IMG/VR virus record: IMGVR_UViG_2603880150_000003
Length of the DNA: 21,318 nt
Reading direction: 5' to 3' (one strand)
Source of the DNA: a virus
Taxonomy: Duplodnaviria; Heunggongvirae; Uroviricota; Caudoviricetes
Positions 774 to 20,034 of this stretch are shown here, piece by piece (positions within the stretch are counted from its first letter, which is position 1; the number at the start of each line of letters is the position of its first letter). Position numbers and translations under genes: made by a program. The notes beneath the pieces were generated by a model. The model searched no databases and was not told the origin of the DNA. It saw only the letters and a program-made list of their open reading frames with translations.

Positions 774-1526
774 TCAGATTCCCTGGTGAGTAAGAATTTT
801 ACTTTCTGAACTCCTCTGAGAGTATTGACTTGGAGAAACACCAAAATAACGTCTAAATACATAAGTAAAGTATGAGACACTGGCATAACCACAGACCTTA
901 GCTACTTTACTAATAGGATAACAACGAGTGCTGAGTAAATATTCAGCCATTTGCATCCTCTCATCAAGTATGATCTTACTGAATGATACCCCCTCTTCTT
1001 TCAATTTCCTCTTTAGTAAACTTTCGCTGAGATATAATCTTGATGATATATCCTTAAGACGCCATGGTGCAGATAAATCCGTATGAATAATCGTTTTAAC
1101 TTTAGCCCCTGTGCTTTTCAAACATTCAAACAGAAATACTCCAAATTGTTTTTCAGAAGAAAATGCAGAGAGACATGTAAAAGCAATAGACTCATCAAAA
1201 ATTTCTATGTATTCAGCACAGTGATTAGCCCAACTAATTAATCCTTTAATTAAACTGAAGTCAGCAAAGTTTATTTTTAAATAAGATGGATATTCCCTAC
1301 AATCAGAAATATCCCTTAAGTTATTAGCTTTCAAATAGCGACTAATAAACTCAGCGCCAAAATCCGCCACTATCACTCTTTCAGGATATGTCAGGAAAAA
1401 ATCTCTAGAGCTAGAGTCGACAAGTACAGATGAACCTCTCTCCAGAAACACACTCTCTTTTCCGAAATAAACATCAAAGGACTCCAAAATCAATATAACT
1501 GAACATGTAGTTGCCATATCATCCAC
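774..1526 (-). CDS. AraC/XylS-family transcriptional regulator (AppY/YdeO/GadX-like), low-GC gene
   Basis: 250-aa ORF; C-terminal region (..WRLKDISSRLYLSESLLKRKLKEEGVSFSKIILDERMQMAEYLL..CGYASVSYFTYVFRRYFGVSPSQY) has the double HTH signature of AraC-family regulators and resembles YdeO/AppY. Markedly AT-rich relative to the prophage genes. Confidence 0.8.
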   Translation of the reverse strand: MDDMATTCSVILILESFDVYFGKESVFLERGSSVLVDSSSRDFFLTYPERVIVADFGAEFISRYLKANNLRDISDCREYPSYLKINFADFSLIKGLISWANHCAEYIEIFDESIAFTCLSAFSSEKQFGVFLFECLKSTGAKVKTIIHTDLSAPWRLKDISSRLYLSESLLKRKLKEEGVSFSKIILDERMQMAEYLLSTRCYPISKVAKVCGYASVSYFTYVFRRYFGVSPSQYSQRSSESKILTHQGI

Positions 1527-2101
1527 CCAACTTAACTGAAACCAGGATGAAGTATATGCATATAAAGTTCACTTTGCCAAACTTCAGTATAAAAAACCAC
1601 ATAAAAAATAGGGTGTGATAAAAAACACCGTAACAATAAAGCAAAGGATTATAAATTCCGTTACAGTTACAAATGATACTCAAGAAACAATTCCTTAGGA
1701 AAAACTTATTTACAGCCAATAAGTAAGACACTTATATGATATCAAGTTTTCATAAAACATAACTAGGCTAAATAGCTGCGCCTAATACCGCTACACTTTT
1801 GCCAGCCCATATTTGCCTCCGGGTATTGACCCCTTCTCTACGCAACTTCAGTTCCCACCACCAACTTTGCGGCAGCTTTGTAGGATCAATGTCTAAAAGA
1901 ATAATGGTGACCGATAAGAAAACGACTGAATAACTGCAAATTTTCGCTCAAAACCTTCCTGTCAGATCCATAGCGAATCAAGTGCTGAATGTCACAGTAT
2001 CAAACAGAAAACAGTGACGATCTAACTCTTCAAGAATATTCTACGATTGTTCTGTTTAGGAAAAGCAAGGCGGGAAGTCGGGAGATAAGTCATTGATAAA
2101 G

Positions 2102-2163
2102 TGGCGGAGAGAGGGGGATTTGAACCCCCGGTAGAGTTGCCCCTACTCCGGTTTTCGAGACCG
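2102..2163 (-). other. Orphan 62-nt 3' fragment of tRNA-Ser(CGA) (serU-type), likely att-site remnant
   Basis: Reverse complement CGGTCTCGAAAACCGGAGTAGGGGCAACTCTACCGGGGGTTCAAATCCCCCTCTCTCCGCCA matches the 3' 62 nt of E. coli tRNA-Ser(CGA) including the CCA end; the match stops abruptly inside the anticodon stem, so no complete tRNA is present. Confidence 0.8.
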
Positions 2164-2906
2164 ATGATACAGAGTCGAAAAATCAAAGAGTTAAAAATTT
2201 TTCTTGGAATAAATGTCTTAAAATCGTACACGAAAAATCAATGAATTACATAACATTAAAGAAGAATATTCCAAGCCTTCTTGATGCTACCACCTGTTTT
2301 CAGGTGTCATTCAGACGTGATTTGCCCCAGATTGGGAAAGCACGCTTTTTTCTCAGCTATCGTCCTCTTATTTTGCCGTTACATTTCTTTTTGCACTCTA
2401 ATGATTAATTTACAATAATAATATCGGTAATTATTGAGTAATAATAAATTGATTATTGCAAATGTAATTTAATTCCATCTTCGCGTTATATTCCAATCTT
2501 TAATCTCCGCATGGAACAAGTTGCATGCGTGACTATATTAAGACAACTTATAACCACCAAAACATTTGCTTTGCAAGCAAAAACAGTGACCATTGACTCT
2601 AAGAAAATTCCGATCTATTGTTAGGGTCATCAAAGTTACTTAACAGTATTCCGAAATGAAAATACAAAGCAAGCTAATTGTCTTATTAAACATTATCATT
2701 GCATTTATATTATTTGAGCTTTTAGCTCAAAAATTTGGTTTGAGTACATTATTTTAAAGCAAGATAAACAATATCGGGCACTCTAGTTTTTATAATTAAC
2801 AATTAAACGTCCATAAAATGTTATTTACTTTTCTTCGCTATTGTCATATCTTAATATAGTGGCTTACGCCACTCTACTTTCATCACATTTTGTACGTTTA
2901 TGTACT

Positions 2907-2939
2907 CGCCATGAAGCTCTTTCATGGCGATTTTTTATT
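2907..2939 (+). terminator. Candidate intrinsic terminator (9-bp stem cgccatgaa/ttcatggcg, loop gctct, then attttttatt)
   Basis: Perfect inverted repeat followed by a T-run on the + strand, inside AT-rich non-coding DNA between the tRNA fragment and tfa. Confidence 0.3.
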
Positions 2940-3022
2940 CTTAATCCAAGAACATACTCCTTACCTATAGCAAAATCACTTTTTGAACAAAAGAATAACG
3001 TATTTAGGTAATCATTACGAAT

Positions 3023-3604
3023 TTACCCTATAGGTGCTACTGGCCATTCAATATCCGGTGCAGTTGTTGTATTAACACGGTTCAGCAACACCCGATACTT
3101 CTTCCAGGCTTCCAGCAACGAGGTTTCTTCCTCCGTTGCAATTTCCAGATCTGCAGCATCCTGAAGCGGCGCAATATGCTCACTGGCTACCTGCATCAGG
3201 CTGTTTTTTGTTTCTTCCGCCTCCCGGATCCGGAACAGTTTTTCTGCTTCTGCATCTTTCACCCAGGCTGTGCCGTTCCACTTCTGATATTCCCCTCCCG
3301 GCGACAACCAGGTAACATTTTCCGGTAACGGACCGAGTTCAGAAATAAATAACGCGTCGCCGGAAGCCACGTCATAAACCGTTTTACCCCGATGGTCTTC
3401 AACGAGATGCCACGATGCCTCATCACTGTTGAAAACAGCCACAAAGCCAGCAGGAATATCTGGTGGTGCAATATCGGTACTGTTTGCTGGCAGACCTGTA
3501 TGAGGCGGAATATATGCGTCACCTTCACCAATAAATTCATTAGTTCCGGCCAGCAGATTATAAATTTTTATGGTCCGTGGTTGTTCACTCATTCTGAATG
3601 CCAT
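3023..3604 (-). CDS. tfa: Tail fiber assembly protein Tfa (lambda Tfa-like)
   Basis: 193-aa translation [51 protein letters not shown].. is near-identical to lambda Tfa as recalled; start overlaps the stf stop by 1 nt. Confidence 0.9.
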
Positions 3605-6600
3605 TATGCAAGCCTCACAATATAGTTAAATGCGATGTTTTTGACGGTGTTTTCCGCGTTACCCGCAGCGTTAACGGTGATGGTATGTCCATGTGAGCCA
3701 ATCGCAACGGAGTGCGTATGAGCACCAATACCGACAGTATGTGCATGTGCGCCTGCGCTTGCAGCAGTGCCGGACAGCGAGTGGGTATGAGCACCATCTG
3801 ATGATGTCTTCCCTGCATTACGAGTCTGGCCACTACCGCTTGTTGTGCTCATAATCCCCGCGCTTAGATTTGAAATCGCAGTATAACCATTAGGAAAAAT
3901 GCTCGTGTTCGTGCCACCAAATGCACCGGAACTCTTGTGTTGGTGCGCACCGGCACTATTTGCTGTCCCGCTAATACTATGGGTATGTGCACCAGTGTTA
4001 TTCGTGGATTTGGTTCCGTAATCAAACGACGATGTGGTTTTCGTCCCCAAATCCGTACTGGATGCGCTGGCGCTGTGGGTGTGCGATTTAATGCCGTCCT
4101 GTTCCTGAGACAATACGGCACGACCACTGGCGGGCTTGCCCTTAATCGTCCAGCCACGCATATCAGGGATCACGCCTGACGGATAAGCAACTGCAAGTTT
4201 CGGGTATGCAGATTTGTCAAAAGTCTGCCCCTGCATCAGGGCATAGCCAGACGGAACGGTATCTGATGGCCACGGGATTGGTGCGCCGACTGGATAAAAC
4301 TCTGCAGGAGGATGAGCCGAGGTGTAAAGCTGCGCCCACGGCGACCAGTTTGCGTCGATCGTATCCCGTCGTGAACGAATAAATGCCGGAGCATGAGCAC
4401 CGCTTGTACCACTCCAGCCGATGAGTAACTCACCTTCGCCAACGGCTGTCATCCCTTTCAGGTGAATGATATTTCCATACGCTGTTGGATATCCGTTGTT
4501 ATACACCTCGTATAACTCAAGACCTGTTGCCCCCTGCGTATTGTCTGTCAGCGCGGTTACCCGACCTTTTGAAGCCAGATTAACTGATGATACTGCTGTT
4601 CCACCTGACGGTAATGCCCCAATCTCTGATGCCGTTGGCTTATTTCTGGAGTTATAGTCCCTTCGCCAGCCAGGTGAATAATCTGTTCCGTGATTAATAT
4701 AGGTAAACTGGGCGTTAGTTGTTCCACCACCAGTGGAGGTGGTCGGTGTGGTAATGCGGATCGTCATCGCTGACTTTATCCCCATTACTTCAATGACAGC
4801 TCCGGCGAGATGAATATTACCGCAGCCAGTATCAGTAATGATTTTATTATTGCCATAAGACCAGGAACCCTTGCACATCCAGTATGGATGGTTAAATGCT
4901 CCCTGAGAATCCAGCCACTCGATAAACTGTGCAGTCGTCCAGTTTCCTGTTGTTGTGCTTACTGACCCACCGAAGGCACGGCAGGCACCAATATTTTTCG
5001 TAAAGGTGTCTTTGCCAGGGATATCCGCACCGTTCTGATCTTTCTGCAGACGTTTCTCAGCATTGTCATTGGCTGCTTTTACTGCCTTTGGCGTTGCCGC
5101 CAGCGTTTCAGACGTGCTGTTGGTCGCGCTGCTTAGCTGGATTATCCCTTTCTGTGCTGTCGTTGCATCCTGTGCGGTGTATTTCCCGTTAGCCAGGTCA
5201 TACGCGGCCTTAACGGCTTTTGGTGTTGCCGCCAGTGACTCGGAAGTGCTGTTAGTCGCACTACTGAGCTGTACTATCCCCTTTTTCGTCGTGCTCGCAT
5301 CCTCAAGCGCCACGGCGGATGCAATATCCTCTGCCCGTTTTGCCGCTGTCTCAGCGCGCGTTGCTGCAGATTCCGCCGTACTTTTGCTCTGAGCTGCTGC
5401 CGTCGCACTACCAGCAGCCTCTGTCGCCTTCGTGGATGCCGTCGTGGCGCTGCCCTTCGCTGCTGACGCCTGTCTGGTCGCCTCATCTTTTGAAGCAGAC
5501 GCCGATGATGCCGATGACGCCGCCGAACTGGCGGACGATGCCGCTGCCGTTTTTGAGGATTCTGCACGGGTTTCCGAGGCTTTCGCGTTCGTTTCGGATG
5601 TCATCGCTGCGGATGCAGACCTCGCTGCTGCGCTGGCCTGTTCAGCGGCTTCGCCAGCCTTCGTTGTGGCTGTTGAAGCGGATGATGCGGCGCTTTCGGC
5701 CGATTTTCCGGCTGCGGTGGCACTGACTGAGGCCTGCCCGGCACTTGTTGACGCGGCACTGGCAGACGACGCAGCCGCTGTTTTTGAGCCTGCCGCAGCT
5801 GAGGCGCTCTGTCCCGCTGCCGTCTCAGAAGACCTGGCGTTCGTCTCGGACGTTTTTGCCGCCTTCGCGGAATTTCCTGCCGCCGTTGCCGAGGAAGCGG
5901 CACTACTGGCGCTTGATGATGCGTTCGTTTCTGATGATTTTGCCGCTTCTTTTGAGGCCGCCGCATCCCGGGCCGAGGTCGCAGCTTCTGATGCCTTCGT
6001 GGTCGCGGTGGATGCAGATGTGGCTGCTGATTGTTGTGACGCTGAAGCATTCGTTTCTGACGTTTTCGCCGCACCGGCACTGGTGGCCGCCGCGCTTTTT
6101 GAGGACTCTGCAGCGGCAGCACTTTTTGATGCTTCAGTGGCCTTTGTTGATGCCGTTCCTGCGCTGGAAGACGCTGACTGAGCCGACGACGCGGCCTGTC
6201 CGGCTGACGTGCTGGCTGCGCGTGCTGAGTCCGCAGCATCAGCCGCATGGGTTGCCGCCTCACGGGCTGATGTGCTGGCATCACTGGCTGACTTCTTCGC
6301 GGCTGCCGTGTTCTGTGCCACCGCGGACGCGTTACGCGCCACCTCTTCCACCATCAGTTCAAAACGGCGCAGTGCCTCAGGACGGGCATCATCCTCCGTC
6401 ATGGCACCGAGAAAATCATTCAGCGTACCGGGTTGAGAATCTTCATACACGGTGATGGTCCCGGCATGTGACGGCGGGAATCCTTCCACCAACAGAATAA
6501 CGCTGTACTGACCGTACTCCACATCCATGCTGTAACGCCCGGCTTCATCCGGATTCTCTGAGCCCACCGTGTTCACCACCACCGTGGTGCTGTTACGTCT

Positions 6601-6684
6601 GGCTTTCAGCTGAATGGTGCAGTTCTGTACCGGTTTTCCTGTGCCGTCTTTCAGGACTCCTGAAATCTTTACTGCCATATTCAC
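3604..6684 (-). CDS. stf: Side tail fiber protein Stf (StfR/lambda Stf-like), 1026 aa, with long Ala/Ser/Thr-rich region
   Basis: N-terminus [64 protein letters not shown].. matches Rac/lambda side tail fibers; contains tandem [27 protein letters not shown] motifs and a C-terminal His-rich GAHTHSxSGTA repeat region. Confidence 0.9.
5085..5290 (-). repeat. Tandem ~120-bp repeat inside stf encoding the duplicated SATNSTSE(S/T)[11 protein letters not shown] motif
   Basis: Two near-identical DNA blocks (about 5085-5165 and 5205-5285) are visible on the + strand; both translate on the - strand to the conserved tail-fiber motif. Confidence 0.6.
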
Positions 6685-6689
6685 CCCAC

Positions 6690-6715
6690 AAAAAAGCCCA
6701 CCGGTTCCGGCGGGC
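6690..6715 (-). terminator. Candidate intrinsic terminator between the lom remnant and stf
   Basis: Hairpin gcccacc..ggcgggc followed on the - strand by UUUUUU (the + strand shows aaaaaa at 6690-6695 before the stem). Confidence 0.4.
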
Positions 6716-6742
6716 TGTCATAACACTGTGTTACCTGGCTAA

Positions 6743-8353
6743 TCAGAATTTATAACCGACCCCAACGATGAATCCGTCAGTACGCCAGTCGCCACTGCCG
6801 GAGCCTTCATAAGCAATATCAACAACGACGGACGCTGCCGGATTAATCTGTATACCTGCACTCCACGCCACTGAGGTATGCCGCATTGCACTTTCGTCCC
6901 TGGCGGTGGTCGTCTCTTTCATATAGCCGGATGCATCATCACTCGGCTGACCAACAGCCTCCACGAATGCCGATTTGCCAACGGTGTTCACACTGCGAAC
7001 GTAAAAATAATAATCATAGCCCGGCCTGATATTGATACTGGCGGCTATCCAGTACAGCCCCGTGCCAAGGTAGCGGGCTGTGGTTTCAACCTGCCTGATA
7101 TCGGTAATCCGCTTTTCCGAGAACCAGAACTCAAACTGTACCGTCGGGTCATAAACGGCAAGATGCGGCGTGGCGGTTATCTGAAAATAGCCCGGCGTCA
7201 GCTCAATCCTCGACGGTGCTGCCGGTGCGGCAATCCGGAACGATACCGACGCCGGATCTCCCTGCTGCCCCCACGCATTTACCGCCCGGACTGTCAGCCT
7301 GTAGTTCCCCAGCGCCAGTTGCGTGAAGCGGTATGTGGTTTCCGTCGTCCGGGCCGTGCTGACCAGCCGCTCACTGCCGTCGTCCGCTGTTACGGTCAGA
7401 CGGAGCAGGAAGCTCACGCCCTTCACCACCTTCGGTGTGTCCCAGCGCGCCAGCACCTGATATTCCCCGCTGTCTGCAGTGACTTCTGCGGTCAGGTGCT
7501 GCACCGCTGGCGGCGTGACACCGTTCACCGTGCCACTCTGTTCGCCGTCAAAGTGCGCCCCGTTATCCACGATGGCCTCTTTTTCCGGCACATGCTGCAC
7601 GGCGGTGATGGCATACGTACCGTCATCGTTCTCACGGATACTCACACAGCGGAACAGGCGCTGGCGCAGCGTCGGCAGCTTCAGCCCCCACACGCTGTAT
7701 TCGGCAACGCCGTCAGGAACACGGCTCACTTTCACCTTAAGTCCGTCGGTGACGGACTGAACCTCCACGCTGACCGGATTACCACTTCCGTCAACCAGGC
7801 TTATCAGCGTGGTACCGGAGGATGGCAGCGTGATTTCACGGTCGAGCGTCAGCGTCCGGGTCTGGCTGTTCACCGCCAGCACGCGACCACCGGTGCTGAT
7901 ACCGGCATAGTCATCATCGCAGATTTCAATGACATCGCCCGGTACATGGCGAAGCCCTTCAGCACCCACGCTGAAATCCACGGTCTGCGTCTCCAGCAGT
8001 TCCGTTTTAATCAGCCACAGCCCGGCGCGGTGTGCCTGCCCCCGGCTGGTACAGCCAAAGGCATCCATCTTCGTGACATTACGACCGTAACGGGCAATGG
8101 CCTGCGTATCTTCAACAAGCTCTGTCGCCGTCTCCCAGCCGTTGTCCGGGTCAATCCAGTTCACCTCAACGGCATTATGGCGGTCCTTCAGGGCGCTGAA
8201 GCTGTAGCGGAACGGCGCGCCATCATCCGGCATCACCACATTACTGCGGTTATAGGTCCACACCTTATCCGACGGTCGGTCCTGCACGAACGTCAGCGTC
8301 TGCCCGTTCCATACCGGCATACAGCGCATCGCCGAGCAGAAATCACTGAGCAC
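6743..8353 (-). pseudogene. Tail tip/host-specificity protein J, central fragment, fused in frame to the C-terminal ~59 codons of lom
   Basis: Translation from [19 protein letters not shown].. through ..[20 protein letters not shown] matches the central part of lambda gpJ; the last 59 aa ([59 protein letters not shown]) match the Lom C-terminus with the Ail/Lom/PagC beta-barrel terminal signature. The J N-terminus and C-terminal receptor-binding domain are absent. Confidence 0.75.
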
Positions 8354-8888
8354 ATCCCACGCCTTGCGCTGTGTGGTCAGGTATCAGTTCATCCAGCGCG
8401 GCTGCTTTGTTCATGGCTTTGATGATATCCCGTTTCAGGAAATCAACATGTCGGTTTTCCAGTTCCGGAAAACGCCGCTGCACCGACAGGGGGATCCCGT
8501 CGAGAATACTGGCAATTTCACCTGCGATCCGCGACAGCACGAAAGTACAGAATGCGGTTTCCACCACTTCAGCGGAGTCTCTGGCATTTTTCAGCTCCTG
8601 TGCGTCGGCCTGCGCACGCGTAAGTCGATGGCGTTCGTACTCAATAGTCCCTGGCTGGAGATCTGTCTCGCTGGCCTGCCGCAGTTCTTCAACTTCCCGG
8701 CGCAGCTTTTCGTTCTCAATTTCAGCATCCCTTTCGGCATACCATCTTATAACGGCGGCAGAGTCATAAAGCACCTCATTACCCTTGCCACCGCCTCGCA
8801 GAACGGGCATTCCCTGTTCCTGCCAGTTCTGAATGGTACGGATACTCGCACCGAAAATGTCAGCCAGCTGCTTTTTGTTGACTTCCAT
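8343..8888 (-). pseudogene. nu1: Terminase small subunit Nu1 (NohD-like), C-terminally truncated at a deletion junction
   Basis: MEVNKKQLADIFGASIRTIQNWQEQGMPVLRGGGKGNEVLYD.. matches lambda Nu1 up to ..[10 protein letters not shown], then diverges ([11 protein letters not shown]) where the sequence enters the J reading frame. Confidence 0.8.
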
Positions 8889-9834: not shown

Positions 9835-10128
9835 ATGAAAAAAATGTTGTTTTCTGCCGCTCTGGCAATGCTTATTACAGGATGTGCTCAACAGACGTTT
9901 ACTGTTGGAAACAAACCGACAGCAGTAACACCAAAGGAAACCATCACCCATCATTTCTTCGTTTCGGGAATTGGACAGGAGAAAACTGTTGATGCAGCCA
10001 AAATTTGTGGCGGCGCAGAAAATGTTGTTAAAACAGAAACCCAGCAAACATTCGTAAATGGATTTCTCGGTTTTATTACTTTAGGCATTTATACTCCGCT
10101 GGAAGCGCGTGTGTATTGCTCACAATAA
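9835..10128 (+). CDS. bor: Bor lipoprotein (serum-resistance moron)
   Basis: MKKMLFSAALAMLITGCAQQTFTVGNKPTAVTPKETITHHFFVSGIGQEKTVDAAKICGGAENVVKTETQQTFVNGFLGFITLGIYTPLEARVYCSQ matches lambda Bor; lipobox LITGC; antisense to the lysis genes as in lambda. Confidence 0.85.
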   Translation: MKKMLFSAALAMLITGCAQQTFTVGNKPTAVTPKETITHHFFVSGIGQEKTVDAAKICGGAENVVKTETQQTFVNGFLGFITLGIYTPLEARVYCSQ

Positions 10129-11475: not shown

Positions 11476-11902
11476 AAGCTGTGTGACGAAGTAACCACTC
11501 TTAACAGCATAACCAATTTTTTACGTACGTAAACCACTAAATGATATTTGCGAGAATGCTACCGAGTATTGAAAACACCACTACAAATACATAAGAAAAT
11601 CTCAACAAATAACCAACAAATAATTTCCAGTGTTATTTTTAGCCGGTTTAAATTGAACCTTCAAATTATAGAGCACTTATAAATAACAGCCGTTAATATA
11701 AATTGGCTAACAGATTTATTTTTATTCAGCCAAGAGCCATGAATAGGATTCGATAGAAAAAAGTTCAGATAAAAATAGAGATCTACTTCACAAATCAAAC
11801 GAGAAACCAAAACTTACATCTTGAAATAATCACATTGATTAGATGAATATTTATCGCGCAGTGACATCATTTTTTAATAATAGTTCAAAAAAAGGGCTCA
11901 CG

Positions 11903-13000
11903 ATGAAAAAATTAACAGTGGCAATTTCTGCTGTAGCTGCATCAGTACTGATGGCGATGTCTGCTCAGGCAGCTGAAATTTATAATAAAGACAGTAACAA
12001 GCTGGATCTGTACGGGAAAGTTAATGCTAAGCACTACTTCTCCTCTAATGATGCAGATGATGGTGATACTACTTATGCCCGTCTTGGCTTCAAAGGTGAA
12101 ACCCAAATCAACGATCAACTGACTGGTTTCGGTCAGTGGGAATATGAATTCAAAGGCAACCGCGCTGAATCTCAAGGCTCCTCCAAAGACAAAACCCGTC
12201 TTGCATTTGCAGGCCTGAAATTCGGTGACTACGGCTCCATCGATTACGGCCGTAACTACGGTGTAGCATACGACATCGGCGCGTGGACTGACGTCCTGCC
12301 AGAATTCGGTGGTGACACTTGGACTCAAACCGACGTGTTCATGACTCAACGTGCAACTGGTGTTGCAACCTATCGTAACAACGACTTCTTTGGTCTGGTT
12401 GATGGTCTGAACTTTGCTGCTCAGTACCAAGGCAAAAACGATCGTAGCGATTTCGATAACTACACTGAAGGTAACGGTGATGGCTTCGGTTTCTCTGCTA
12501 CCTATGAATACGAAGGATTCGGTATCGGTGCAACTTATGCGAAATCTGATCGTACCGACACTCAAGTTAATGCAGGGAAAATTCTTCCTGAAGTATTTGC
12601 TTCCGGTAAAAATGCAGAAGTTTGGGCCGCAGGTCTGAAATATGACGCTAACAACATTTACCTGGCCACTACCTATTCTGAAACCCAGAATATGACTGTA
12701 TTTGCTGATCACTTCGTTGCTAATAAAGCCCAAAACTTCGAAGCTGTTGCACAATATCAGTTCGATTTCGGTCTGCGTCCGTCCGTTGCTTACCTGCAAT
12801 CTAAAGGTAAGGATCTTGGAGTATGGGGCGATCAGGACTTAGTCAAATATGTTGATGTAGGTGCAACCTATTACTTCAACAAAAATATGTCTACTTTCGT
12901 TGATTACAAAATCAACCTGCTTGACAAAAATGACTTCACTAAAGCACTCAGTGTAAGCACTGATGACATCGTTGCTGTAGGTCTGGTTTACCAGTTCTAA
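11903..13000 (+). CDS. nmpC: Outer membrane porin NmpC/OmpD/Lc (OmpC family), apparently intact
   Basis: [23 protein letters not shown] signal peptide, then [23 protein letters not shown].. and C-terminal ..VAVGLVYQF, the general-porin signature; SD aaaggg upstream. The listed ORF starts 20 codons upstream but 11903 fits the signal peptide. Convergent with Q, as for nmpC in DLP12. Confidence 0.9.
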
Positions 13001-14712: not shown

Positions 14713-14885
14713 TTCCTCGCACGATATCTTAGCCACCGGATATCCCACAGGTGAGCTGTGTAATTGAAGGTTTTTACGTCAGATTCTTTTGGGATTGGCT
14801 TGCGTTTATTTCTGGAGCGTTTCGTTGGAAGGTATTTGCAGTTTTCGCAGATGATGTCGGTGAAACTTCGTCGCTGTCGCCTCAT
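14709..14885 (-). CDS. ninE: NinE
   Basis: 58 aa [58 protein letters not shown] resembles lambda/DLP12 NinE; ATGA overlap with the upstream Dam fragment stop. Confidence 0.75.
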
Positions 14886-15229
14886 GCCGCCCTCCTGACG
14901 CCCTGCCCGATCGCCATCAATGCCGCTTTGGATACGGTAGTAAACATCCGTCGAGGACTGATGAACAGTCGCCAAATCAGCAGCATGGAGCCTTTGCTGT
15001 TTTCCTTCTTCTCCAACCCTGTCGATGGTTCGATAAAATTAATCCGTCCATCAGTGATAATGCGAACTTCGTCGACACTCTCCAGAGCCTTGCTGAACCA
15101 TCCGACTGACATATCCTCTGGCACAAGCATAACTACCGTCTGTCGCTGTTGTATGCACTGCTCAGCGGCTTTTTCCACCCACGGCCTGATATTGCTGTAC
15201 GGTGGGTTATTCCAGATTGCACCGTGGCT
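14882..15229 (-). pseudogene. Phage Dam-type N6-adenine DNA methyltransferase, 3' fragment (contains the NPPY motif)
   Basis: Minus-strand translation from 15229: [71 protein letters not shown]..; catalytic NPPY motif present, no N-terminal domain; an in-frame stop lies immediately upstream (15230-15232). Confidence 0.7.
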
Positions 15230-15230
15230 T

Positions 15231-15542
15231 TACGAGTATTGCCGGAAGCGAGGCCTGTATCCGGATGCGGAGTCTTATCCGTGGAAATCAAACGCGCACT
15301 ACTGGCTGGTTACCAACCTGTATCAGAACATGCGGGCCAATGCGCTTACTGATGCGGAATTACGGCGCAAGGCTGCCGATGAACTGACCTGTATGACAGC
15401 GCGAATTAACCGTGGTGAGACGATACCTGAACCAGTAAAACAACTTCCTGTTATGGGCGGTAGACCTCTAAATCGTGCACAGGCTCTGGCGAAGATCGCA
15501 GAAATTAAAGCTAAGTTCGGACTGAAAGGAGCAAGTGTATGA
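15231..15542 (+). pseudogene. P: Replication protein P, C-terminal ~104 codons only
   Basis: YEYCRKRGLYPDAESYPWKSNAHYWLVTNLYQNMRANALTDAELRRKAADELTCMTARINRGETIPEPVKQLPVMGGRPLNRAQALAKIAEIKAKFGLKGASV matches the lambda P C-terminus; the preceding 160 codons of the listed ORF are antisense to ninE/dam and unrelated to P. Confidence 0.8.
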
Positions 15543-15829
15543 CGGGCAAAGAGGCAATTATTCATTACCTGGGGACGCATAATAGCTTCTGTGCGCCGGA
15601 CGTTGCCGCGCTAACAGGCGCAACAGTAACCAGCATAAATCAGGCCGCGGCTAAAATGGCACGGGCAGGTCTTCTGGTTATCGAAGGTAAGGTCTGGCGA
15701 ACGGTGTATTACCGGTTTGCTACCAGGGAAGAACGGGAAGGAAAGATGAGCACGAACCTGATTTTTAAGGAGTGTCGCCAGAGTGCCGCGATGAAACGGG
15801 TATTGGCGGTATATAGAGTTAAAAGATGA
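15539..15829 (+). CDS. ren: Ren
   Basis: MTGKEAIIHYLGTHNSFCAPDVAALTGATVTSINQAAAKMARAGLLVIEGKVWRTVYYRFATREEREGKMSTNLIFKECRQSAAMKRVLAVYRVKR matches lambda Ren; ATGA overlap with the P stop. Confidence 0.85.
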   Translation: MTGKEAIIHYLGTHNSFCAPDVAALTGATVTSINQAAAKMARAGLLVIEGKVWRTVYYRFATREEREGKMSTNLIFKECRQSAAMKRVLAVYRVKR

Positions 15830-15902
15830 CCATCTATATTACTGAGCTAATAACAGGCCTGCTGGTAATCGCAGGCCTTTTTATTTGGGGGAGAGGGAAG
15901 TC

Positions 15903-16343
15903 ATGAAAAAACTAACCTTTGAAATTCGATCTCCAGCACATCAGCAAAACGCTATTCACGCAGTACAGCAAATCCTTCCAGACCCAACCAAACCAATCGT
16001 AGTAACCATTCAGGAACGCAACCGTAGCTTAGACCAAAACAGGAAGCTATGGGCCTGCTTAGGTGACGTCTCTCGTCAGGTTGAATGGCATGGTCGCTGG
16101 CTGGATGCAGAAAGCTGGAAGTGTGTGTTTACCGCAGCATTAAAGCAGCAGGATGTTGTTCCTAACCTTGCCGGGAATGGCTTTGTGGTAATAGGCCAGT
16201 CAACCAGCAGGATGCGTGTAGGCGAATTTGCGGAGCTATTAGAGCTTATACAGGCATTCGGTACAGAGCGTGGCGTTAAGTGGTCAGACGAAGCGAGACT
16301 GGCTCTGGAGTGGAAAGCGAGATGGGGAGATCGGGCTGCATGA
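15903..16343 (+). CDS. ninB: NinB (Orf-family recombination mediator)
   Basis: MKKLTFEIRSPAHQQNAIHAVQQILPDPTKPIVVTIQERNRSLDQNRKLWACLGDVSRQVEWHGRWLDAESWKCVFTAALKQQD.. matches lambda NinB; SD gagggaag upstream. Confidence 0.9.
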   Translation: MKKLTFEIRSPAHQQNAIHAVQQILPDPTKPIVVTIQERNRSLDQNRKLWACLGDVSRQVEWHGRWLDAESWKCVFTAALKQQDVVPNLAGNGFVVIGQSTSRMRVGEFAELLELIQAFGTERGVKWSDEARLALEWKARWGDRAA

Positions 16344-16708
16344 CTATCAAATCAAATACGCCAGCACACGACAAGGACTGCTGGCAAACGCCGCTTTGGC
16401 TTTTTGATGCACTGGATATTGAGTTTGGATTCTGGCTGGATTCGGCAGCGAGCGACAAAAATGCTCTGTGTGCTCACTGGCTAACTGAGGCCGACGACGC
16501 GCTCAATTCTGAGTGGGTACACAAAGCATCTCCTGTTGAGTTAAGAACGAGTATTGAGATGGCACATAGCCTTGCTCAAATTGGAGTCAGGTTTGTGCCA
16601 ATACCAGTAGAAACAGACGAAGAATTTCATACGTTAGCCGCATCCCTTTCACAAAAGCTGGAAATGATGGTGGCGAAAGCAGAAGCAGATGAGAGAGACC
16701 AGGTATGA
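16340..16708 (+). pseudogene. Dam-type methyltransferase 5' fragment (62 codons, DCWQTP motif) fused in frame to an early-left small ORF (possibly lambda orf63-like)
   Basis: MTIKSNTPAHDKDCWQTPLWLFDALDIEFGFWLDSAASDKNALCAHWLTEADDALNSEWVH is the N-terminal half expected upstream of the NPPY fragment at 14882-15229; after His62 the sequence (KASPVELRTSIEMAHSLAQIG..) is unrelated to Dam. ATGA overlap with the ninB stop. Confidence 0.65.
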
Positions 16709-18633: not shown

Positions 18634-18852
18634 ATGTACTTGACACTTCAGGAGTGGAACGCACGCCAGCGACGCCCAAGAAGCCTTGAAACAGTTCGTC
18701 GATGGGTACGCGAGTGCAGGATATTCCCTCCTCCGGTTAAGGATGGAAGAGAGTATCTGTTCCACGAATCAGCGGTAAAGGTTGACTTAAATCGACCAGT
18801 AACAGGTAGCCTTTTGAAGAGGATCAGAAATGGGAAGAAGGCGAAGTCATGA
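18634..18852 (+). CDS. xis: Excisionase Xis
   Basis: MYLTLQEWNARQRRPRSLETVRRWVRECRIFPPPVKDGREYLFHESAVKVDLNRPVTGSLLKRIRNGKKAKS matches lambda Xis (72 aa); overlaps the int start. Confidence 0.9.
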   Translation: MYLTLQEWNARQRRPRSLETVRRWVRECRIFPPPVKDGREYLFHESAVKVDLNRPVTGSLLKRIRNGKKAKS

Positions 18853-19900
18853 GCGCCGGGATTTACCCCCTAACCTTTATATAAGAAACAATGGATATTA
18901 CTGCTACAGGGACCCAAGGACGGGTAAAGAGTTTGGATTAGGCCGAGACAGGCGAATCGCAATCACTGAAGCTATACAGGCCAACATTGAGTTATTTTCA
19001 GGACACAAACACAAGCCTCTGACAGCGAGAATCAACAGTGATAATTCCGTTACGTTACATTCATGGCTTGATCGCTACGAAAAAATCCTGGCCAGCAGAG
19101 GAATCAAGCAGAAGACACTCATAAATTACATGAGCAAAATTAAAGCAATAAGGAGGGGTCTGCCTGATGCTCCACTTGAAGACATCACCACAAAAGAAAT
19201 TGCGGCAATGCTCAATGGATACATAGACGAGGGCAAGGCGGCATCAGCCAAGTTAATCAGATCAACACTGAGCGATGCATTCCGAGAGGCTATAGCTGAA
19301 GGCCATATAACAACAAACCCGGTCGCAGCCACTCGCGCTGCAAAATCAGAGGTAAGGAGATCAAGACTTACGGCTGACGAATACCTGAAAATTTATCAAG
19401 CAGCAGAATCATCACCATGTTGGCTTAGACTTGCAATGGAACTGGCTGTTGTTACCGGGCAGCGAGTTGGTGATTTATGCGAAATGAAGTGGTCTGATAT
19501 CGTAGATGGATATCTTTATGTCGAGCAAAGCAAAACAGGCGTAAAAATTGCCATCCCAACAACATTGCATGTTGATGCTCTCGGGATATCAATGAAGGAA
19601 ACACTTGATAAATGCAAAAAGATTCTTGGCGGAGAAACCATAATTGCATCTACTCGTCGTGAACCGCTTTCATCCGGCACAGTATCAAGGTATTTTATGC
19701 GCGCACGAAAAGCATCAGGTCTCTCCTTCGAAGGGGATCCGCCAACCTTTCACGAGTTGCGCAGTTTGTCTGCAAGACTCTATGAGAAGCAGATAAGCGA
19801 TAAATTTGCTCAACATCTTCTCGGGCATAAGTCGGACACCATGGCATCACAGTATCGTGATGACAGAGGCAGGGAGTGGGACAAAATTGAAATCAAATAA
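18830..19900 (+). CDS. int: Integrase Int (lambda-type tyrosine recombinase)
   Basis: 356 aa MGRRRSHERRDLPPNLYIRNNGYYCYRDPRTGKEFGLGRDRRIAITEAIQANIELFSGHKHKPLTARINSDNSVTLHSWLDRYEKILASRGIKQKTL.. near-identical to lambda Int; 3' end points at the att core. Confidence 0.95.
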   Translation: MGRRRSHERRDLPPNLYIRNNGYYCYRDPRTGKEFGLGRDRRIAITEAIQANIELFSGHKHKPLTARINSDNSVTLHSWLDRYEKILASRGIKQKTLINYMSKIKAIRRGLPDAPLEDITTKEIAAMLNGYIDEGKAASAKLIRSTLSDAFREAIAEGHITTNPVAATRAAKSEVRRSRLTADEYLKIYQAAESSPCWLRLAMELAVVTGQRVGDLCEMKWSDIVDGYLYVEQSKTGVKIAIPTTLHVDALGISMKETLDKCKKILGGETIIASTRREPLSSGTVSRYFMRARKASGLSFEGDPPTFHELRSLSARLYEKQISDKFAQHLLGHKSDTMASQYRDDRGREWDKIEIK

Positions 19901-19954: not shown

Positions 19955-19987
19955 GCTTTTTTATAATGCCAACTTAGTATAAAAAAG
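19955..19987. other. Prophage-host att junction (int-proximal); 15-bp lambda core GCTTTTTTATACTAA on the - strand at 19973-19987
   Basis: ..gttgcaacaaattgataagcaatgcttttttataatgccaacttagtataaaaaagc matches the lambda P arm and core as recalled; the following aggc.. matches the bacterial arm (CTGCTTTTTTATACTAA.. in reverse complement). Confidence 0.8.
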
Positions 19988-20034
19988 CAGGCTTCAACGG
20001 ATTCATTTTTCTATTTCATAGCCCGGAGCAACCT

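Follow-up and report, generated by a model that had tools for sequence, protein, structure and literature searches.

The stf-tfa locus and the prophage remnant around it

Two intact genes lie on the minus strand of the window, the whole 21,318-nucleotide stretch of DNA that was analyzed. The gene stf (3604-6678) encodes a side tail fiber and tfa (3023-3604) a tail fiber assembly chaperone of 193 aa. The stop codon of stf and the start codon of tfa overlap as TAATG, and a GAGG is located 8 nt upstream. From the ATG at 6678, Stf comprises 1024 aa and begins with MAVKISG, the N-terminus of lambda Stf, in agreement with the 1024-aa RefSeq call (WP_072004200.1). The length of 1026 aa given in a sequence-only reading of this DNA is obtained from an upstream GTG at 6684 (3604-6684), but this GTG sits within the Shine-Dalgarno-like GGGGTGA, and the ATG is the start that matches both lambda and RefSeq. 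Stf matches the Pfam families phage_tail_N (E=1e-72), Phage_fiber_2 (twice, E=6e-37) and Collar (E=4.5e-11), and Tfa matches Caudo_TAP (PF02413, E=5e-42). Because these matches are strong in both proteins, neither gene can be a chance reading frame. No NCBIfam family was assigned to Stf or Tfa. With its Caudo_TAP domain, its place directly downstream of the fiber gene and its translationally coupled arrangement, tfa is of the Tfa type. Its product is 95% identical to lambda Tfa, 94% to TfaR of Rac and 95% to Tfa of PhiR42_1, and its C-terminus matches Mu TFA (U) (PDB ID 5YVQ_B). The open reading frames, the Pfam matches and the TAATG overlap bear out the earlier description of the two genes as full length and coupled.

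The pair lies close to attR, at one end of a defective lambdoid prophage of about 20 kb, which is integrated in E. coli at attB-lambda between ybhB and ybhC. The att cores were found at 19974-19988 of the window and about 230 bp ahead of its position 1, and int and xis are intact and lambda-type. Genes A through I, cI, cro and O are missing, P is truncated, only an internal fragment of J is left, and lom is reduced to its last ~61 codons. The prophage is att-integrated and has lost essential virion and lytic genes, as cryptic lambdoid prophages of the Rac/Qin/DLP12 type have. The order J'-lom'-stf-tfa on one strand matches that of lambda and PhiR42_1. In the whole remnant there is no annotated frameshift or internal stop; all pseudogenes are stumps left by deletion or rearrangement. 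Matches annotated as tRNA-Ser prompted a search for a tRNA gene in the spacer between the AraC gene and tfa; ARAGORN found none, and the spacer consists of a partial serU fragment and a yodB-side flank. An invertible host-range segment of the Gin/Cin/Pin type was also considered and rejected, positions 1500-3022 containing no recombinase ORF, second tfa or significant inverted repeats.

Relative to PhiR42_1, 15,786 bp of head and tail DNA have been lost, a stretch that starts in the 3' end of Nu1 and ends at J codon 327. The terminase small subunit gene nohD (Nu1; 8343-8888, minus strand; Pfam Phage_Nu1, E=2e-101) remains, with its last 11 codons replaced by out-of-frame J DNA. Alignment to PhiR42_1 places the Nu1/J junction at 8380-8383, in a 4-bp microhomology, TACC. 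A further loss took the C-terminus of J and most of lom. The result is a relic at 6743-8383 (minus strand) in which J codons 328-815 are fused in frame to the last ~61 aa of Lom; it matches Phage-tail_3, Ig_J and Ig_J_second, and the lom' part matches positions 138-199 of the Ail_Lom profile. No credible start codon was found for this ORF. The earlier claim that the virion assembly pathway is gone thus holds for the most part, except for the relics nohD and the start-less J'-lom' ORF.

A strong intrinsic-terminator-like hairpin (6695-6716, minus strand; a 9-bp stem, 7 of its pairs being GC, and then TTTTTT) separates the lom' stop from the start of stf. The promoter scan revealed no promoter-like site between this terminator and the stf ATG and gave no support to a promoter of its own for stf-tfa, the 17 promoter-like sites comparing with 16.9 expected from shuffled sequence. 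The late genes and quuD share the strand of stf, in the order essD-rrrD-rzpD-nohD-J'lom'-stf-tfa, and the deletion brought stf about 17 kb nearer to the late promoter region. From this arrangement we infer that upstream transcription would reach stf-tfa only when it is antiterminated late transcription.

Modules of the side tail fiber

By sequence comparison, Stf is a mosaic of known modules, each of which also occurs in lambdoid phages whose complete genomes have been deposited. First comes a lambda StfN collar and then a shaft of 48 heptads; two Phage_fiber_2 units and a Mu S'-like module lead on to the T4 gp37-type tip. Residues 1-134 (6277-6678, minus strand) form the lambda-type tail-attachment (collar) domain (PF08400, E=1e-72, with profile positions 1-134 complete), and residues 1-94 match the collar of Ur-lambda Stf (PDB IDs 9E7M and 9MGH, E=8e-54). 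In Ur-lambda this domain is located at the gpV-gpM junction of the tail (PMC12617516). The conserved modules show a dN/dS of 0.1-0.3. Homologues of 97-98% identity are numerous, and one cluster of 93% identity contains 4246 member sequences.

Residues 117-455 (5314-6330, minus strand) are predicted from a heptad table and autocorrelation to be a trimeric coiled-coil shaft of 48 uninterrupted heptads. This region had been read as a low-complexity Ala/Ser/Thr stretch, which does not describe it well. Instead, the heptads are in phase with the consensus A-[ST]-x-A-x-[TS]-S, Ala occupying positions 1 and 4, and the lag-7 autocorrelation of Ala is 0.48, far above the 0.00 +/- 0.055 of 2000 shuffles. 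Such an Ala/Ser/Thr heptad tract fits a coiled-coil shaft, predicted to be a trimer. In Ur-lambda Stf, aa 102-393 form a proximal coiled coil (PMC12617516). The shafts of homologues differ in length by -70, -28, -21, -14 and -7 aa, with smaller non-heptad steps in addition.

The shaft is followed by two tandem 44-aa Phage_fiber_2 units (aa 456-543; 5050-5313, minus strand; PF03406 twice). The tandemly duplicated 20-residue motif and the DNA repeat pointed out earlier proved to be this Pfam tail-fibre repeat. The DNA copies at 5065-5171 and 5197-5303 are spaced by 132 nt (44 aa) and are 74% identical over 107 nt. When whole units are compared, identity is 64% at the nucleotide level and 30 of 44 residues at the protein level, and the longest exact run is 11 nt. 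Tandem Repeats Finder reported two trivial short arrays only and not the 132-nt repeat, which is too diverged; find_repeats detected it. The internal repeats had also been expected to vary in length, and the close homologues agree: among 120 of them, 103 have two copies, 1 has three and the remainder have one (16 with a single motif; 12 with exactly one unit deleted). Hybrid units occur in the one- and three-copy homologues, as unequal crossover predicts.

The Mu S'-like module (aa 539-695; 4594-5064, minus strand) was recognized by its match to PDB ID 8JU3, a Mu S/S' chimera (domain E=4e-69). It contributes to an exchangeable middle cassette, aa 546-793, which is 98.8% identical to that of PhiR42_1 and just 22% identical to that of the PEC1009 remnant.

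The last module, aa 794-1024 (3607-4299, minus strand), is a T4 gp37-type receptor-binding tip with collar, needle and variable head (PDB ID 2XGF, E=1e-83; PF07484). Its overall identity to T4 gp37 is 71%; the collar and needle parts reach 81% and 77%, and the head 29%. The C-terminal GAHTHS repeats of the sequence-only reading exist, but they are better described as belonging to the seven H-x-H motifs of a gp37-type needle (nt 3685-4083, minus strand; motif scan), which are found at aa 866, 898, 912, 964, 978, 987 and 996. All seven align one to one with those of T4 gp37, in whose needle the His-x-His motifs bind seven irons. The variable head covers aa 914-963 (nt 3790-3939, minus strand), and this region is the hypervariable part among homologues. 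Since the head shares only 29% identity with that of T4 and has 15 residues more, the T4 receptor cannot be assumed for it. Phage mEp332, whose record lists K-12 as host, carries an identical head allele (100% identity over 79 aa).

Comparison with known fiber systems

Among the close known systems are the pairs stfR-tfaR of the Rac prophage of K-12 and stfQ/tfaQ of Qin. In Rac, too, an intact orphan pair follows a lom fragment (ynaA'-lom'-stfR-tfaR) and the morphogenesis genes are lost. Over residues 1-565, Stf shares 89% identity with StfR, and both have the same heptad run. However, StfR has 1120 aa, a different middle cassette, a tip of 78% identity and one Phage_fiber_2 unit, compared with two here; on this comparison of copy number, which had been proposed as a check, the locus is not identical to Rac. 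Furthermore, the invertase gene PinR adjoins tfaR, whereas no invertase is found here, and the integration site, attB-lambda in the present case, differs.

Among the related lambdoid phages (PhiR42_1, PhiR26_1, PhiR68_2, mEp460, mEp332 and ev099), PhiR42_1 has an Stf of 1023 aa (1025 in the annotation, which starts at a GTG further upstream). It is encoded amid complete morphogenesis genes and shares 93.5% identity with the Stf studied here. Every module is 94-100% identical between the two proteins except the head (47%). The PhiR42_1 cassette differs in lying in a complete genome, with a PinQ-type recombinase downstream. The PhiR phages were counted as complete from their GenBank records; a literature search on them gave nothing directly usable. 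A PhiR42_1-type body together with an mEp332-type head was found in no single phage record. Likewise, no phage record covered >=80% of the Stf query, although low-complexity masking lowers such coverage figures.

Lambda Stf is shorter, with 774 aa. By the same criterion, its longest uninterrupted heptad run is 26, compared with 39 here; it has one fiber repeat and a tip of 70% identity, and it gave no match to the Mu S'-like module. Ur-lambda Stf/Tfa (orf401+orf314, orf194) resembles the present pair in the order J-lom-stf-tfa, the collar, the shaft (a predicted coiled coil in the present Stf) and the gp37-like HxH tip, and Ur-lambda shares the att site and lambda-type int and xis. Its Stf binds OmpC, and lambda side fibers are non-essential and only speed adsorption (PMC12617516). 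T4 gp37, which is served by the chaperone gp38, shares the collar domain, the interdigitated needle and the seven His-x-His motifs, but the rest of Stf is unrelated to it as far as tested, and Stf is paired with a lambda-type Tfa. Mu S/S'-U shares the Phage_fiber_2 repeats, and aa 539-695 are about 80% identical, by eye, to the Mu S' part of 8JU3. In contrast to Mu, there is no invertible G segment here, and the S'-like module occupies an internal position, not the receptor-binding end.

Survival and possible role of the orphan pair

The pair had been described as retained, which can be read as a preferential or selected survival. We compared seven remnants of one prophage family, all at this site and each with its own deletion architecture; they were picked from the best matches and not by a phylogenetically controlled survey. 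Only two of the seven keep both stf and tfa intact. Three have an stf truncated at the 5' end, with a frameshift in one of them as well, and a fourth has a frameshifted stf; two have a truncated tfa and five an intact one, and the AraC-to-tfa end is present in all. A genome count gave the AraC module with the spacer in 99 genomes, and with a near-full stf in at most 45, figures that are only rough, since the 80% coverage threshold does not cleanly sort genomes with IS1 insertions or partial truncations. Considering that no gene in the remnant is frameshifted or internally stopped, the open 3-kb ORF is no evidence of constraint. Selected retention thus finds no support, and nothing indicates that the pair is kept for a purpose.

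Our preferred explanation, which we consider probable, is that stf-tfa is an intact passive survivor of recent deletions whose only realistic role is as recombination-partner DNA for lambdoid phages. Two simple deletions took away the morphogenesis genes: one joined Nu1 to J codon 328 at the TACC microhomology, a second joined J codon ~815 in frame to the lom C-terminus, and both happened to end short of stf. Judged from the protein families, Stf would trimerise, with Tfa as the chaperone for trimerisation of the tip, and its N-terminus would attach to a tail of the lambda type where gpV meets gpM. The conserved motifs suggest that each of the seven HxH layers would hold one iron, and the head would bind an outer-membrane receptor, likely OmpC or of the LPS type. 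Because the remnant no longer encodes a lambda-type tail, Stf is without function in cis. Expression would need Q-antiterminated late transcription able to pass the terminator that directly precedes stf. Lambdoid phages that infect the cell or co-reside in it could recombine with the cassette, as lambda does, at about 2e-6 and mainly through Red-beta, with stfR of Rac and tfaQ of Qin (PMC3945230). That orphan fibers can be recombination donors, as the sequence-only reading supposed, is therefore established for Rac and Qin, and it agrees with the module shuffling seen here.

A lambdoid phage that carries a compatible Q, whether it infects the cell or co-resides in it, might instead activate the late operon, so that fibers from the remnant join its tails and alter adsorption without recombination. 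The shared strand of the late genes, quuD and stf, the match of the StfN collar to that of Ur-lambda, the 95% identity to lambda Tfa and the ~17-kb approach of stf to the late promoter region all suit such a supply in trans. However, most lambdoid phages have an stf of their own, and lambda side fibers are dispensable and only speed adsorption; this course is unlikely. A bolder version is just as doubtful: the deletions would have made a compact Q-dependent late operon of lysis genes, nohD and stf-tfa, trans-activated by a lambdoid phage, with the fiber supplied in trans or by recombination, and orphan cassettes would be a maintained host-range reservoir at attB-lambda, not debris.

Selective retention or domestication, with stf-tfa kept as a useful host-range bank or for a surface or adhesion function, is very unlikely. 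The 3-kb ORF is intact, its chaperone is coupled to it, dN/dS is below 0.3, and a similar orphan pair is present in Rac and PEC1009. Ongoing constraint would also fit the open ORFs and this dN/dS, although most of this divergence probably accrued while the genes sat in functional phages. Against retention, deletions often enter stf in the sister remnants, intactness is uninformative where point-mutational decay is absent, a gain for future phages is not selection on the host, a terminator directly precedes stf, and the count of promoter-like sites does not exceed that of shuffled sequence. Nevertheless, the end near attR may enjoy some protection, positional or selective, because tfa is intact in five of seven sisters and the AraC-to-tfa end is always present. 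That stf is silently dead, its ORF open but its chimeric modules or missense changes making the fiber non-functional, is highly improbable: the exact combination of body and head is absent from phage records, but each module is 94-100% identical to one in a complete-genome lambdoid phage, all seven HxH motifs and the collar are conserved, and there are numerous homologues of 97-98% identity and thousands of sequences in the 93% cluster.

As a passive survivor, the pair is ordinary. An orphan stf-tfa in a cryptic lambdoid prophage is common, well described and already known, and the locus adds little beyond annotation, being a further example of a well-studied situation. One lesson is that, where a remnant shows no point-mutational decay anywhere, an open ORF says nothing for selection. 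The locus also illustrates how tail fibers evolve: modules are exchanged, the middle cassette and the head being swapped independently; the 44-aa repeat undergoes unequal crossover; and the shaft changes in length, its larger changes amounting to whole heptads.

Genes and modules of the side tail fiber

The side tail fiber gene stf is open on the minus strand from 6684 or 6678 to 3604, and the adjacent gene for the tail fiber assembly chaperone, tfa, from 3604 to 3023. The GTG start behind the 1026 aa proposed in a sequence-only reading falls within the ribosome-binding sequence of stf. The ATG at 6678 yields MAVKISG..., the N-terminus of lambda Stf, and a protein of 1024 aa in agreement with RefSeq. 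The stf stop and tfa start overlap in TAATG, with GAGG 8 nt upstream. Pfam searches matched Stf to phage_tail_N (1e-72), Phage_fiber_2 (twice) and Collar, and Tfa to Caudo_TAP (5e-42), leaving no doubt that both are real genes. The open frames, the overlap and these matches bear out the reading's observation of full-length, coupled genes, although three of its descriptions had to be corrected.

By its matches, Stf is a mosaic of known modules. Residues 1-134 are a lambda-type N-terminal domain, of which residues 1-94 align with the side-fiber collar structure of Ur-lambda (9E7M/9MGH, E=8e-54), a domain that assembles there into a dodecamer encircling the gpV-gpM junction as a collar (PMC12617516). 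Residues 117-455, previously described as a low-complexity tract, form an unbroken series of 48 heptads of the pattern A-[ST]-x-A-x-[TS]-S, in which Ala occupies 35/49 first and 47/48 fourth positions; the lag-7 autocorrelation of Ala is 0.48, well above that of shuffled sequences (0.00 +/- 0.055). The heptad tract appears to be the counterpart of the proximal coiled coil in Ur-lambda Stf (PMC12617516), with a predicted shaft length of about 50 nm at ~0.15 nm per residue. The duplicated motif is present as a DNA repeat (5065-5171 and 5197-5303, 132-nt spacing), but it is better described as two 44-aa Phage_fiber_2 units (aa 456-543). A further module, aa 539-695, matches Mu S' in PDB 8JU3 (domain E=4e-69).

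For residues 794-1024 the match is the T4 gp37 tip crystal structure (2XGF, E=1e-83), with identities of 81% in the collar part, 77% in the needle part and 29% in the head (aa 914-963). Seven H-x-H motifs (aa 866-998) pair one to one with those of gp37 (7/7), which coordinate seven iron ions in T4. This pairing suggests that the C-terminal GAHTHS repeats noticed in the earlier reading form iron-binding layers in a needle of the gp37 type, and that the segment between motifs 3 and 4 would be the receptor-contacting head. Tfa shares 95% identity with lambda Tfa and 94% with Rac TfaR, and its C-terminus matches Mu TFA; TFA proteins help fiber tips to fold and trimerise. Judging from these protein families, Stf would trimerise and dock on a lambda-type tail through its N-terminus, Tfa would chaperone its tip, the needle would bind iron and the head an outer-membrane receptor.

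The gutted prophage and expression of its fiber genes

Over all 21,318 bp, the window has 100% identity to chromosomal DNA of E. coli F3_13_1_3 (bovine) and AH21. In the RefSeq annotation, the lambdoid prophage occupies the attachment site of lambda, between ybhB/bioA and ybhC. One lambda att core, GCTTTTTTATACTAA, is perfect and is found at 19974-19988 between int and ybhC, and a second core with one mismatch lies ~230 bp before window position 1 (14740-14754 of the locus L001). Given both cores, an intact int (18830-19900) and an xis annotated as intact by RefSeq, the ~20-kb gutted element may still be excisable.

All late genes are on the minus strand, in the order quuD, essD, rrrD, rzpD, nohD (the Nu1 terminase small subunit gene), the relics J' and lom', stf and tfa. 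According to RefSeq, the immunity/replication region is missing or rearranged, with cI, cro and O absent and P truncated. In the rearranged early region (~14882-16519), P' (without its N-terminus), ren, ninB and a methyltransferase fragment lie on the plus strand, in inverted orientation to the late genes. The P'-ren-ninB block is flanked by the halves of an N6-adenine methyltransferase gene (14882-15229, minus; 16340-16519, plus), and the arrangement looks like an inversion with one breakpoint inside that gene. Between quuD and essD, on the strand opposite to theirs, is a porin gene of the OmpC family (11843-13000, plus; 529 bits to the NCBIfam OmpC subfamily), at the place where DLP12 and PA-2 have nmpC/lc. 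Its presence is of note, OmpC being used as receptor by fiber tips of the lambda and T4 types; the phage porin Lc of PA-2 is known to alter the receptor landscape. An iss/bor serum-resistance lipoprotein gene (9835-10128, plus) lies between rzpD and nohD.

Aligned to the genome of PhiR42_1, a lambdoid phage whose morphogenesis gene set is complete, the window shows two simple deletions. In the first, Nu1 is fused to J codon 328 over a 4-bp TACC microhomology, 37 nt short of the Nu1 stop. This deletion removed 15,786 bp relative to PhiR42_1, comprising the Nu1 end, A, W, B, C/Nu3, D, E, FI, FII, Z, U, V, G, T, H, M, L, K, I and J codons 1-327. NohD is still 181 aa long, its final 11 residues being encoded by out-of-frame J DNA. 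The second deletion joined J codon ~815 in frame to the final ~61 codons of lom, with loss of the receptor-binding end of J. The resulting J'-lom' chimeric ORF (6743-8353, minus; 536 codons) contains mid-J (Phage-tail_3 and two Ig domains) and the last ~61 Lom residues, with a stop directly upstream and no credible start.

With all the tail genes lost, the fiber has no function to serve in cis. Just 17 nt separate the stf ATG from the end of a strong terminator-like hairpin upstream of it (6716-6695, minus), and a promoter scan found promoter-like sites at background level only, which suggests that stf-tfa expression probably depends on Q-antiterminated late transcription.

State of stf and tfa among sister remnants

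The earlier reading regarded stf and tfa as retained. We compared the sister remnants, deleted prophages of the same family at the same site, which have the AraC-family gene and IS fragments of the ybhB end in common. The window (F3_13_1_3; Stf of 1024 aa) and PEC1009 (987 aa; nohD joined to lom') have both genes intact. APEC O78 has an intact stf of a different type (1101 aa) and a truncated tfa, and TUM1887 a frameshifted stf of the S74-endopeptidase type and a truncated tfa. In the other three tfa is intact and the stf N-terminus is missing, with capsid' joined to stf' in IAL7255, terminase' joined to stf' in FDAARGOS_1248, and an additional frameshift in 23CRST021. Thus, both genes are intact in only 2/7 architectures, stf in 3/7 and tfa in 5/7. 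As rough figures, the AraC module and spacer occur in 99 genomes, with a near-full-length stf alongside in at most 45.

Every pseudogene annotated by RefSeq in the window remnant is "incomplete/partial", i.e., a deletion or rearrangement stump, with no frameshifts or internal stops. With no point-mutational decay anywhere in the remnant, the open 3-kb ORF says nothing about constraint. The dN/dS of 0.1-0.3 in conserved Stf modules probably reflects mostly the time the genes spent in functional phages. These results argue against selected retention, and we conclude that the deletions here merely halted short of stf; weak protection of the attR-proximal end is possible.

The AraC-family regulator gene (774-1526, minus; low GC) lies between tfa and the attR end, next to IS3-family transposase gene fragments (1-770, ybhB end) common to all sister remnants. 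It is found in 7/7 remnants and may be what is truly conserved at the attR-proximal end. The regulator scores best against YdeO and GadX, with values below curated cut-offs, and it presumably resembles the EHEC prophage-encoded acid-resistance/LEE regulators PsrA/PsrB/PatE. A 340-bp segment at 1824-2163 (plus) has ~97% identity to the chromosomal yodB-serU interval, which is present at serU in 5423/5426 E. coli genomes. The segment takes in ~62 nt of the 3' part of a tRNA-Ser, and ARAGORN found no complete tRNA in it. O157 strains carry the AraC module (770-2164) at 99% identity, with the alignment stopping exactly at the yodB-serU-like segment. From this flank and match end, the AraC moron seems to have arrived here together with flanking bacterial DNA of a prophage integrated at serU.

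Length variation, module exchange and donor potential

Among the 120 closest Stf homologues, the 44-aa unit occurs twice in 103, three times in one and as a single motif in 16; exactly one unit is deleted in 12 proteins. In the one-copy forms the start of unit 1 is fused to the end of unit 2 within an 11-aa stretch, and in the three-copy form the middle unit is a hybrid, as expected for products of unequal crossover. The two units share just 64% nucleotide identity, with a longest exact run of 11 nt. The heptad region also differs in length (-70, -28, -21 twice, -14 and -7 aa, and smaller steps), and variability is concentrated in the head region (aa 901-975). Copy number is thus neither invariant nor identical to that of K-12 Rac StfR, which has one fiber unit.

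The stf-tfa DNA is covered to at least 80% in 634/5426 complete E. coli genomes, and Stf homologues at 92-98% identity are numerous, one 93%-identical cluster holding 4246 member sequences. Nearly the same protein occurs in lambdoid phages deposited as complete genomes (PhiR42_1, PhiR26_1, PhiR68_2 and mEp460). Compared with PhiR42_1, the modules are 94-100% identical except the head (47%), whereas compared with PEC1009 the head is 100% and the middle cassette (aa 546-793) only 22% identical. Over 79 aa, the head allele is 100% identical in phage mEp332 and 98.7% in ev099. These identities indicate that the cassette and head were exchanged independently, which is direct evidence of recombination of these genes in nature, in one direction or the other. 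The sister remnants TUM1887 (L002 3523-7304) and APEC O78 (L007 3223-6708) have a different fiber cassette in place of the stf body and the bulk of tfa, of which a 132-nt stump persists; in TUM1887 this cassette includes a self-chaperoning S74 endopeptidase domain. Fiber cassettes have therefore been replaced in the remnants as well.

The arrangement in K-12 Rac, ynaA'-lom'-stfR-tfaR, matches that of the window locus, so both pattern and interpretation are already in the literature and the finding is an ordinary one. Unlike in Rac and PhiR42_1, an invertase and alternative tfa are absent at the window locus. For lambda, recombination with stfR of Rac and tfaQ of Qin has been shown at ~2e-6, mainly via Red-beta (PMC3945230), a precedent that upholds the proposed potential as a recombination donor. 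Of the earlier interpretation, donor potential and repeat length variation stand and selected retention does not; by analogy with Rac and Qin, the realistic role of stf-tfa would be as homologous DNA for lambdoid phages.
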